Virus genome (UHGV): UHGV-0067703 | Source: a virus | Length of the DNA: 21,971 nt | Strand: one strand, 5' to 3' | Shown here: positions 9,001-12,000 of the stretch, in pieces | How the letters are laid out: each line of letters begins with the position of its first letter | How positions within the stretch are numbered: the stretch's first letter is position 1 | Position numbers: made by a program

Positions 9001-12000
9001 GCTGCTCCATTCGCAAAAGCCCTGGGATACGCCAACACGGCGGACGCATTGAAAAAGCACTGCAAGTCATTGATTAAACTTAATTATCGCGAATCGCGAG
9101 AATTAGGTTTAGGTGACAATCCGCGAGGAATTCAACTTATTGGCCAAGGTGACGCTTTTCGTCTCATCATGCGTAGCTCGTTACCATCGGCAGAACGGGT
9201 TCAGGATTGGGTTTGTGAAGTTGTCCTCCCAGCCCTGATGGAGACAGGAACTTACAGCCTTAAACAGGAGAAAAGTACACCATCAAACGGCCTTCCTGAA
9301 TACCGCAAAGCTAAAGCGCTGAAAATGGAAATGGAGGTTATCTCAAGCGTTCTGGATCGTTTACCGCACCTGGGCGACAAGGCGAAACAGGCTGCTTACG
9401 CCTCAGTGATTAACCGTTCTGCTGGTTTTAATGTTATCCCCCTTCCTGTTCTTGATGAACATCACTACAGTGCAACAGAGGTTGGTAAACAGTTTGGCGT
9501 CACTGCAAACAAGATCGGTCGCATTGCCAATACCTACATGCTCAAAACAGAACAATACGGGAAATGGTTCATCGACAAATCCCCGTATTCGGATAAGCAG
9601 GTAGAAAGCTTTCGATACAATAATCGGGGAGTACGGAAGATTGAAGAAATCCTGGAGGCGGAGAACAAAGCAGAGTTCGGAACCTGATATCCTCCACTCT
9701 CCGACGCCGCCAGAATGACGGCGCGGTGGTTAAGCATGAGGCGAAATTTCTGCCGGGCGGTATTTTGTTGAGAGATGAGATACGTCAACTTCTCTTTCCG
9801 CTTTTTCGAGGCTCCATGCCGTCTGGAGACGAATCCATGAAGACGGAGTTCCACCCAGGACAGCAGCGAGACGAACAGCCATTTCAGGAGATATTGTCGC
9901 ATTACCTGAAACCAGTCGCTGAACAGTGGAAGGCGCGACATCAAGCGCTCTTGCCAGTTCCCTGATTCCAATATTCTGATCTTCCAGAATATCAGCAATA
10001 ATTTCTCCGGGATGAGGGGGATTAAACATCGTCATTTAGTGGTAATCAAACATTTATGGCCTGAATCCCGTTTTTTTCAATAACGGAAAGAAGTCGCAGG
10101 GCGGGACCACCAGGGCGTTTCACTCCGCGTTCCCAGTCAGATATCAGGTTTTTACTGACATTCATATATCTGGCAAAGACGGGTTGTGACAGATGTTCAC
10201 GCTCACGGAGTGCCCGGATTCTTTCAGGAGACATTGAAGGTGCTGGTTGCAGGCAGAGTTCATCGAATTCTCGCATAGTCTGTTTCGTTACTGCGCCGAT
10301 ATCATGAAGCGATTCCATCATTTCATGTACGGATGCAAGCGCATCACTGCGGTAATTTTTACTCATTTGGTACCTCCGTAAACTGACCCTGTAGAATCAG
10401 TTGTGCCAGTTGTTCATCTGTTAGATTGAGTACGTGAGGTGCAGCCTTCCGAAATGTGCTTTCCTCAGTAGCGGTTATATTTTCACGTTCATTTTTTGCA
10501 TATGCATATACGAAAAATGCCCTCATACCGACACGATAGAAAATGATTGTGCGATAACCGCCAGATTTGCCGCCACCGACTCGTGGCAGACGTTGCTTGA
10601 TAACGCCGTTACCCAGGTTTGCTGAGATAAGCCCGTTATCAGCCTGTTTAACAATTTCGCGCAGTGACTGGTCGGATATTTTGTTTTTGCGTGCAAATCG
10701 CTCAAACCAAGCGTTTTTAAAAATGCGCATTTTTGTTCCGTTATTAATGTATAACACATAGTATTACATTGTGTAGGGATCTGCAATGCCATCAGTTTGA
10801 CAACGTCGCGTATCCGGGATTATATTCATCGCACGCCAGCAAAATCTGGCGTCGGGATTAGGAACCCCGGATATTCAACCGCGACAGACACACGCCGCGA
10901 GCGTGTTTTTTATTGTCGTATGCGCACGCACATCTGAATTATGGTGAGGCGTATGGGGCAGCCGAAAGGCTGGCCGGTTGGTTGATCCGGTAGTTCCTAA
11001 CCCTGTACGTCTCGCCACCCGATGATTAGGAACCTGACGGTGGTGAATGAAAAACTCATCAACCGGAGGCGTCACTATGACAACTCAAGTTTCTGTTGAA
11101 ACACTCTCCACGATTACTTACAAGCAGATCCCCGTTATCACTACTGAACTTTTGGCGCACCTTTACGGCACAGAAGCTATTCGTATTCGCCAGAATCACC
11201 ACGAAAACAAAGGTCGTTTCATTGAGGAAAAACACTTCTTCAAACTTGAAGGTGAAACTTTACGTGAGTTCAAGCACAGAGTAGCTTTTAACTACTCTGT
11301 GAAAATTGCCCGTAACGTTCGTTCCCTCATCCTCTGGACTGAACGCGGCGCTGCCCGTCATGCAAAAATGCTCGAAACCGATCAGGCGTGGGAAGTGTTC
11401 GAAAAACTGGAAGACTGCTATTTCAGCCCGGGCAAAGCGGAACAGCACCCGCAGATCCAGCAGCAATTCACAGACGAAGAAATCATCCTCCTTTGCTACA
11501 TGCAACTCTGGATGGAAAAAGCCCAGGACCTTAGCAAGCAGCTGTACCCCATAATGAAAGAGCTGAACTCCTCATACACGAACAAGCTGTATGACATTGC
11601 GTTTGAGACTATCTACATGGTGACGAAGAACAGAGACGCGCTACTAAGGGAGGTAACACGTCTCGACATGTCAAGTTCCGTTATCCAGCGGGCCATGCCA
11701 ATGCTGAAAAGCCTGCGGGCAAGACAATTCGAGTTTTAAGGCCAGATTTGACAACACCGCATTAACGGGGCTATATTCCGCTTCATGGTGCTCAAAACAC
11801 CTTTGCGATAGCGGAAACCGCCCCGTCAGTTATGCGGATTTTTTTATGTCTACGACATTGAGAATTCAATGGTCGGGCGTGCGGCTAATAAAACACCCGC
11901 AAGGGAAATATGCCCGCCGTCTATCGCCGGTTTTGAGCGCCCGACCACCCTCTCAAAAGGGGTGAATTCAAAATATGCGATAGGACATAAAACCATGGCT

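Follow-up and report, generated by a model that had tools for sequence, protein, structure and literature searches.

Gene content and setting of the locus

The window, that is, the whole stretch of 21,971 nucleotides analysed here (virus genome UHGV-0067703), carries a cluster of three minus-strand genes in a region that corresponds to a lambdoid, Stx-phage-like E. coli prophage. Over its segment 9600-10900, E. coli JNEC-KY203 and JNEC-KY177 match it at 100% identity and SCU-104 at 98.8%. In JNEC-KY203, the neighbours of the cluster are gam, recT, exo, a BRO-N antirepressor gene, two ORF6N antirepressor-like genes, an MT-A70 methylase gene, an integrase gene and tRNA-Arg; neighbouring genes in this identical prophage are annotated as pseudogenes. 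The three ORFs lie exactly at the coordinates assigned to them by an earlier, sequence-only reading of this DNA (Table 1), and its family calls are upheld by profile searches, which identify a PF06296 toxin, an XRE antitoxin and a TIGR02607 HigA. The RefSeq annotation of identical DNA makes the same three assignments.

Table 1. Features of the three-gene cluster and its flanks, with the parental and chimeric joints (positions in the window)
Feature	Position	Strand	Description
GC-rich hairpin	9704..9725	.	CGCGCCG..loop..GGCGGCG; higA and BRO-N converge on it
Orphan higA	9730..10035	-	101 aa; TIGR02607; 10 nt past the antitoxin TGA
Recombination junction	10036..10047	-	12-nt remnant of the higB 3' end (GAT TAC CAC TAA)
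Antitoxin gene	10046..10366	-	106 aa; XRE/HigA2-like, C-terminal HTH at residues ~44-99
Toxin gene	10359..10730	-	123 aa from ATG; PF06296 'RelE'/HigB2-type, BECR-fold
Imperfect inverted repeat	10770-10746		AATGTAATAC-N4-TGTTATACATT; candidate operator of the TA operon
Candidate TA promoter/operator	10746..10786	-	weak -35 TTGCAG (10786-10781), 17 nt, -10 TACTAT (10763-10758); by eye
Divergent promoter	10797..10826	+	TTGACA-18-TATATT, 11/12 matches (promoter scan); predicted to drive the isrK/C4/ORF6N antirepressor unit
isrK-like RNA	10833-10911		Rfam; between the toxin gene and the first ORF6N gene
C4-like antisense RNA	10937-11022		Rfam; between the toxin gene and the first ORF6N gene
Joint, donor type (PhiR12_3)			...AATGTT TGA TTACC, then the GC-rich hairpin at once
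Joint, GER2			...GAG GAT TAC CAC TAA TGG
Joint, window			...AATGTT TGA TTACC ACTAA ATG

Two features frame the cluster. On one side, the GC-rich hairpin may act as a terminator, although it has no T-run and was not called by the terminator scan. It trails the XRE gene in phage PhiR12_3 and in locus L005, and trails higA in the window, GER2 and PA2, and the homology of loci L019 and L020 to the window stops at 9704, just past it. On the other side, homology to GER2 resumes at 10795, so the divergent promoter marks the 5' boundary. Thus, with the hairpin as conserved 3' edge and the isrK promoter as 5' edge, the cluster occupies a slot bounded by both. The sequence-only reading had predicted a promoter for the operon near 10740-10790, which is unconfirmed, since the consensus scan returned no minus-strand sigma-70 site for the operon and a weak candidate was placed by eye; the region of this candidate is kept among cassette copies of 92-99% identity. 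Between the three genes, the same type of scan predicts neither a terminator nor a promoter on the minus strand.

The toxin-XRE pair has the features of a HigB2/HigA2-type module

The toxin matches Pfam PF06296 'RelE' along the entire profile (positions 1-120 of 120, E 3.8e-46) as well as phrog_5869, and its ORF can be extended to a GTG at 10757. Among solved structures, its relatives are limited to V. cholerae HigB-2, a weak match (E 3e-3). PF06296 toxins are described as degrading mRNA in a ribosome-dependent manner and as preceding their antitoxins (T/A order), and they form a family separate from PF05015, to which the HigB partners of canonical HigA belong (PMC11980606, Table 1); by homology, the toxin of the window is presumed to be a ribosome-dependent mRNA endonuclease. 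Its ORF overlaps that of the antitoxin by 8 nt (ATGAGTAA), and the XRE gene has a strong Shine-Dalgarno sequence, GGAGG, with a predicted anti-SD pairing energy of -10.8 kcal/mol. The antitoxin matches HTH_3 (2.4e-7) and phrog_2104 (2e-41), and its residues 44-99 match the solved HigA-2 (5JAA/5J9I, E 1.3e-7), while its N-terminal ~43 residues presumably neutralise the toxin. A full-length PF06296 toxin, a toxin-first, overlapping and conserved bicistron and a HigA-2-related HTH together place the pair in the HigB2/HigA2 type. PADLOC has no defence-system model for the toxin and returns generic HTH matches for the other two proteins.

The toxin-XRE pair is a conserved unit. An XRE homologue lies 3' of the toxin gene in every related locus that is long enough to tell (46 loci from other species, 37 phage contigs), and the pair alone occurs in about 480 E. 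coli genomes and in phage PhiR12_3. The loci from other species include Chromatiaceae, Halomonas, Brucella and cyanobacteria. In addition, the substitution pattern is that of purifying selection: two toxin alleles of the cluster differ by 6.5 synonymous and 1.5 non-synonymous changes (pN/pS ~0.07), and the XRE gene differs from that of L005 by 5 synonymous and 0 non-synonymous changes. Judged by this pattern, the pair therefore looks functional.

The third gene is a canonical HigA without its HigB

The third gene product exceeds the cut-off of NCBIfam TIGR02607, 'HigA family addiction module antitoxin', by a wide margin (2e-25, 88.4 bits against 47.7), and its nearest solved structures are E. 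coli HigA (2ICP, 8e-28) and Proteus HigA (1e-19). It is 99% identical to the HigA of GER2, the sole difference being A2T. As the sequence-only reading had noticed, this HigA has no HigB of its own: directly upstream, where a canonical higBA operon has its toxin gene, 12 nt of higB are left. The locus thus holds an intact antitoxin gene without the cognate toxin gene. Nor was a near-identical higB found elsewhere in the listed complete genomes that carry the cluster, in which a higBA query matches with its higA half only.

The expression signals of higA are missing as well. The same earlier reading had raised a promoter of its own for the third gene as a point against a joint unit; none was detected for higA in the scan of the window, and nothing in the window corresponds to the promoter segment of GER2 (3715-3775). 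The higA Shine-Dalgarno sequence (GAGGA) was located inside higB and TTTGA now stands in its place, with a predicted anti-SD pairing energy of +0.6 kcal/mol in the window vs -5.9 in GER2 and PA2. Since this sequence is lost, HigA expression would be low at best, and HigA would be made only from read-through mRNA by inefficient re-initiation after the XRE stop. A repeat in the GER2 higBA promoter (GTTGCG..TTAC / GTAACGCAAC) was sought in the window and gave three matches with one mismatch, no more than expected by chance and none at the TA promoter; a search of the GER2 higBA promoter for inverted repeats at seed 6 gave none. The best reading of these observations is that HigA is a relic, poorly translated at best.

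The joint lies at a microhomology between two parental cassettes

The structure of the joint emerges from the junction sequences of the window, GER2, PA2, PhiR12_3 and L005 laid out side by side. In GER2, identity to the window is 99.8% across window positions 8001-10047 and 98.3% across 10795-11387, and between these flanks GER2 has a 328-bp segment with higB (PF05015, E 1e-21) and its own promoter, the higB stop overlapping the higA start (TAATG). In the window, a 747-bp RelE-XRE cassette (10048-10794) replaces this higB segment. PhiR12_3 and L005 carry a RelE-XRE cassette 96-98% identical to that of the window, which ends in ...TTTGATTACC with the hairpin directly after it. The cluster is thus composed of two modules: window 9600-10047, with the 3' end of BRO-N and higA, is found in GER2 and many Stx2a phages, and window 10041-10874, with the XRE gene, the toxin gene and the promoter, is found without higA in PhiR12_3 and hundreds of E. 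coli genomes. The layouts of both parents can be read directly from these alignments, as can the junction and the loss of the higA signals.

The window junction, TTTGATTACCACTAAATG, joins sequence of both parents. BLAST breakpoints fall at 10047 against GER2 and PA2 and at 10041 against PhiR12_3. The seven nucleotides in between, GATTACC (10041-10047), are the first seven of the 12-nt higB remnant, and the donor RelE-XRE cassette has them in its 3' tail as well, so that they form a microhomology with the final codons of higB; they include the second and third bases of the XRE stop codon TGA (10046-10048). As the parental and chimeric joints align in this way, the crossover is placed within GATTACC; the 12 nt of higB that are kept, together with a joint at a 7-nt microhomology, mark it as a deletion/replacement scar. 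The position of the second crossover is between 10795 and ~10872, in the shared flank on the isrK side.

One shared junction points to a single origin of the three-gene cluster

Across 5426 complete E. coli genomes, 484 match part of window 9600-10900 and 3 carry all three genes. The layout is non-standard, as the sequence-only reading had said, and it has a single junction. This higA is found in 68 complete E. coli genomes, of which 22 have an intact higBA, about 43 a different higB deletion and 3 the chimera seen here. The different deletion is of the PA2/Stx2a-phage type, with a 23-nt higB remnant and, upstream, a lipoprotein-like ORF and a ParD-like gene. The chimera is present in many draft assemblies: an index of public assemblies has the exact HigA(A2T) protein in 574 blocks, with the three-gene cluster in each context that was inspected.

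The junction was also found in three IMG/VR contigs and three metagenome contigs. The metagenome scan used a 19-nt junction pattern and returned 20 loci, of which BLAST confirmed three (L023, L026 and L039), the rest being chance matches in unrelated contigs. A plasmid search gave no meaningful match. Among 37 phage contigs with the pair, a same-strand HigA follows it in 3, all with one junction, and the other 34 have the pair alone (0/34); likewise, none of the 46 loci from other species has a HigA on the same strand behind toxin and XRE (0/46). The cluster is present in a second, different prophage backbone at L019 and L020. All 18 copies examined have three intact ORFs and one identical junction, and this shared junction argues for a single origin. 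Hence, when the same tricistron is looked for elsewhere, as the sequence-only reading had proposed, it does turn up in other prophages, but as one lineage with an identical junction that is absent from the 46 loci of other species. Co-inheritance of the third gene with the pair over independent lineages was not found.

Origin of the third gene and alternative readings

We consider it probable that the cluster combines an ordinary type II TA module with a relic HigA, the remainder of a neighbouring higBA cassette whose higB was replaced. According to this model, the slot between the hairpin and the isrK promoter would hold differing TA cassettes in each phage, and the prophage ancestor would have held higB-higA there, as GER2 does today. 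A complete HigB2/HigA2-type cassette with its own promoter would have arrived from a PhiR12_3-like phage, by one crossover in the shared isrK-side flank and another, illegitimate one at GATTACC inside the last codons of higB. Such an event would have deleted higB, the higBA promoter/operator and the HigA Shine-Dalgarno sequence, after which higA would have remained as the third cistron, separated from the XRE gene by 10 nt. Toxin and XRE protein would then operate as an ordinary type II module, in which the toxin cleaves mRNA on the ribosome and is neutralised by the N-terminal part of the antitoxin, and the HTH autoregulates the promoter. HigA would be a passenger, and the operon would contain neither a cognate toxin nor an operator for it. 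The reverse direction, with the three-gene form as ancestor and higBA derived from it, was considered and rejected, given that the window keeps 3' codons of higB and that a higB-higA pair overlapped at TAATG is canonical.

One may argue instead that the three genes form a genuine three-component system. The sequence-only reading had suggested for the second HTH protein a role as regulator, anti-antitoxin or sensor in a prophage abortive-infection circuit, and HigA could have been co-opted in this way for RelE-XRE, similar to PaaR2 in paaR2-paaA2-parE2. The genes are indeed co-oriented with an 8-nt overlap, a 10-nt gap and no terminator between them, and the cluster has moved as a unit into a second backbone. 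Moreover, the toxin is intact in 18/18 three-gene copies and disrupted in 13/34 two-gene phage copies (Fisher p = 0.002, for copies that are phylogenetically non-independent). Nevertheless, HigA differs by A2T only from a GER2 form that is partnered with HigB, and canonical HigA pairs with PF05015 toxins, not PF06296. The pair stands without HigA in hundreds of genomes and across phyla, and the single junction, with its scar, points to a single origin. In addition, the promoter bears no HigA operator motif and both the promoter and the ribosome-binding site of higA are gone. A three-part circuit is thus unsupported, and we regard it as very improbable. Still less credible, to the point of being nearly negligible, is the notion that all three genes are non-functional cargo of the prophage and in decay. 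Decay does occur in this setting, since the toxin is frameshifted or cut in many related two-gene cassettes (e.g. in O104:H4 and PhiR12_3) and nearby genes carry pseudogene annotations in the identical prophage; however, all three ORFs of the cluster are full length, the toxin spans the whole Pfam profile, and the low pN/pS of the toxin (~0.07) and the 0 non-synonymous against 5 synonymous changes of XRE are not those of a module in decay.

Several observations weigh against a mere passenger, namely the persistence in 574 blocks, the second backbone at L019 and L020, the intact higA in 18/18 copies, the lean towards synonymous changes and the retention of higA in Stx2a phages, and they are compatible with HigA still acting. 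HigA might thus be a functional orphan antitoxin that borrows the RelE-XRE promoter and acts, independently of the pair, against HigB toxins of related phages, plasmids or host TA defence, a reading we hold to be unlikely. In its favour, there have been at least two losses of higB, which differ in breakpoint (remnants of 23 and 12 nt) and both spared higA; complete E. coli genomes with an orphan higA (~46) are more numerous than those with an intact higBA (22); and an intact GER2-type higB, a potential target, circulates in the same species. Substitutions in higA over lineages, ~4 non-synonymous and 7 synonymous (binomial p = 0.008 vs neutrality), are few, and some may predate the loss of higB, but they hint at constraint. 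Furthermore, an anti-defence role has been suggested as a possibility for the orphan HigA and ParD of phi346/phi349 (PMC12502783), and the anti-addiction idea for orphan antitoxins has been reviewed (PMC7354431). On the other hand, the loss of both Shine-Dalgarno sequence and promoter would be odd for a gene selected for expression, and divergence is so small that intactness may be no more than a sign of youth. A lost toxin beside a kept antitoxin is, moreover, what neutrality predicts: because losing the antitoxin first is lethal, the toxin goes first in neutral decay. PADLOC gives HigA weak HTH-type matches at E 3e-4 or worse, and DefenseFinder does not recognise HigA as an anti-defence gene, as reported in PMC12502783. 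A broader version, which we think quite unlikely, would make the region between the BRO-N and isrK/ORF6N units a hotspot of TA-cassette swapping, in which toxins are repeatedly lost and antitoxins kept as weapons. HigA, or ParD in Stx2a phages, would then guard the lysogen or phage when competing phages, plasmids or host defence TA systems deploy toxins of the HigB type, and the RelE-XRE promoter would keep higA constitutively expressed in the lysogen.

Significance and relation to known systems

To our knowledge, this chimera and its microhomology scar have not been described before; the components and the orphan-HigA phenomenon are already known. As an example of non-standard TA layouts produced by mosaic recombination in the accessory ("moron") slots of prophages, the locus is clean and datable, and it serves as a warning that gene adjacency alone is no guide to function. 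It also illustrates an origin of orphan antitoxins, with the toxin lost and the antitoxin kept, while offering little mechanistic novelty. Should HigA be expressed and protect against a foreign HigB, it would rank with the earliest cases of a classic antitoxin demonstrated to serve a phage in anti-addiction or anti-defence, for which there is no verified example according to PMC12502783.

The pair itself resembles Vibrio cholerae HigB2-HigA2 in its PF06296 toxin, its toxin-first overlapping genes and its C-terminal HTH that matches HigA-2; however, the similarity is distant, and the system described here resides in an E. coli prophage and has a third gene in the same transcription unit. The third gene resembles the antitoxin of canonical higB-higA systems (GER2, E. 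coli CFT073 2ICP, Proteus Rts1) in being a bona fide HigA, 99% identical to that of GER2 and in the same slot, and differs in that higB, apart from 12 nt, the promoter/operator and the Shine-Dalgarno sequence are missing from the window. In the overall layout, paaR2-paaA2-parE2 of E. coli O157:H7 cryptic prophages is likewise prophage-borne, with three co-oriented genes and an extra HTH protein (PMC8630535). Its third gene, in contrast, encodes a dedicated regulator that is kept together with the pair, whereas here a foreign antitoxin was joined once and no other copy of the pair has it. The closest parallel for the fate of higA is provided by Stx2a phages (PA2, VT2phi_272, phi346/phi349), in which a 98% identical higA occupies the same slot beside BRO-N with higB deleted; the orphan HigA and ParD antitoxins of phi346/phi349 have been reported with their role left open (PMC12502783). 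Unlike in the window, the deletion in these phages is an independent one, there is no complete TA pair upstream, and the 23-nt higB remnant retains the Shine-Dalgarno sequence.

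Mobility of the RelE-XRE cassette and the adjoining antirepressor unit

Divergent from the TA operon lie two tandem antirepressor-like genes, whose leaders contain matches to three small RNAs, isrK, C4 and sRNA-Xcc1, all above their Rfam gathering scores, and this arrangement of RNAs and ORF6N genes resembles the P1 immI/Gifsy-1 isrK-type antirepressor control unit. The RelE-XRE pair and the isrK/ORF6N unit together are found at two distinct prophage positions when the window is compared with two copies that lack higA (L005 and L007) and with the three-gene cluster in a second backbone (L019). 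In the window they occupy the early-left region near the integrase, whereas in O104:H4, 2013C-3033 and the second backbone (L019/L020) they lie between the replication-region genes (DUF1627/DUF977) and ninB. The whole unit therefore moves among prophage backbones as a block.

Two events in the higB slot

Compared with GER2, a near-identical phage with intact higB-higA, and with the Stx2a phage PA2, the window has a 1-nt insertion that turns TAATG into TAAATG and so uncouples the start of higA from the former stop codon of higB. Codon 2 of higA also carries a G to A change relative to both phages (A2T). Both differences cluster at the recombination scar (10033-10038), and the A2T allele of HigA appears to be diagnostic for the three-gene chimera. 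PA2-type Stx2a phages retain higA with a 23-nt higB remnant (PA2 locus, L002 3448-4175), and upstream of it they encode a lipoprotein-like ORF, which had no match in Pfam, and a ParD-like orphan antitoxin. Their higB loss is a second event in the same slot, independent of that in the window. Orphan antitoxins of Stx2a phages have already been mentioned in print (PMC12502783).

Features of the window and of related loci
Feature	Location	Strand	Details
Perfect 16-bp palindrome AAAAATGCGCATTTTT	within 10711-10734		midpoint at toxin start codon
Near-palindrome GCATTTTTAAAAACGC	within 10711-10734		overlaps AAAAATGCGCATTTTT
isrK	10833-10911	+	Rfam, 68.9 bits
C4 antisense RNA	10937-11022	+	Rfam, 67.2 bits
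sRNA-Xcc1	11871-11954	+	Rfam, 78.1 bits
Tandem ORF6N (P22_AR_C) genes	11047-11739, 11869-12666
Lipoprotein-like ORF	PA2-type phages, upstream of higA		93 aa
ParD-like RHH orphan antitoxin	PA2-type phages, upstream of higA		PF03693, E 1e-7
Disrupted toxin, PhiR12_3	L004 3435-3689
Disrupted toxin, E. coli O104:H4 2011C-3493	L007 3362-3619
Further disrupted toxins	L106, L109, L110, L114-L123

Toxin start region and conservation of the pair

Both palindromes at the toxin start are kept in every RelE-XRE copy aligned, and AAAAATGCGCATTTTT may serve as an operator or fold in the mRNA into a hairpin that hides the start codon. Between the weak SD and the start codon of the toxin (10731-10735), the A-run of the window (AACAAAAATG) lacks one A that all five other aligned copies have (AACAAAAAATG).

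Among toxin-XRE loci of other species (L041-L086), all 33 distant-species pairs compared have an XRE antitoxin that is better conserved than the toxin; median identity to the window proteins is 76% for the antitoxin and 59% for the toxin. Antitoxins are usually expected to evolve faster than toxins, and the pattern here is the opposite.

In many two-gene copies XRE is intact and the toxin is frameshifted or truncated (13 of 34 phage contigs, against none of 18 three-gene copies, these copies being phylogenetically non-independent). Both PhiR12_3 and the O104:H4 outbreak strain carry the frameshift near codon 12.
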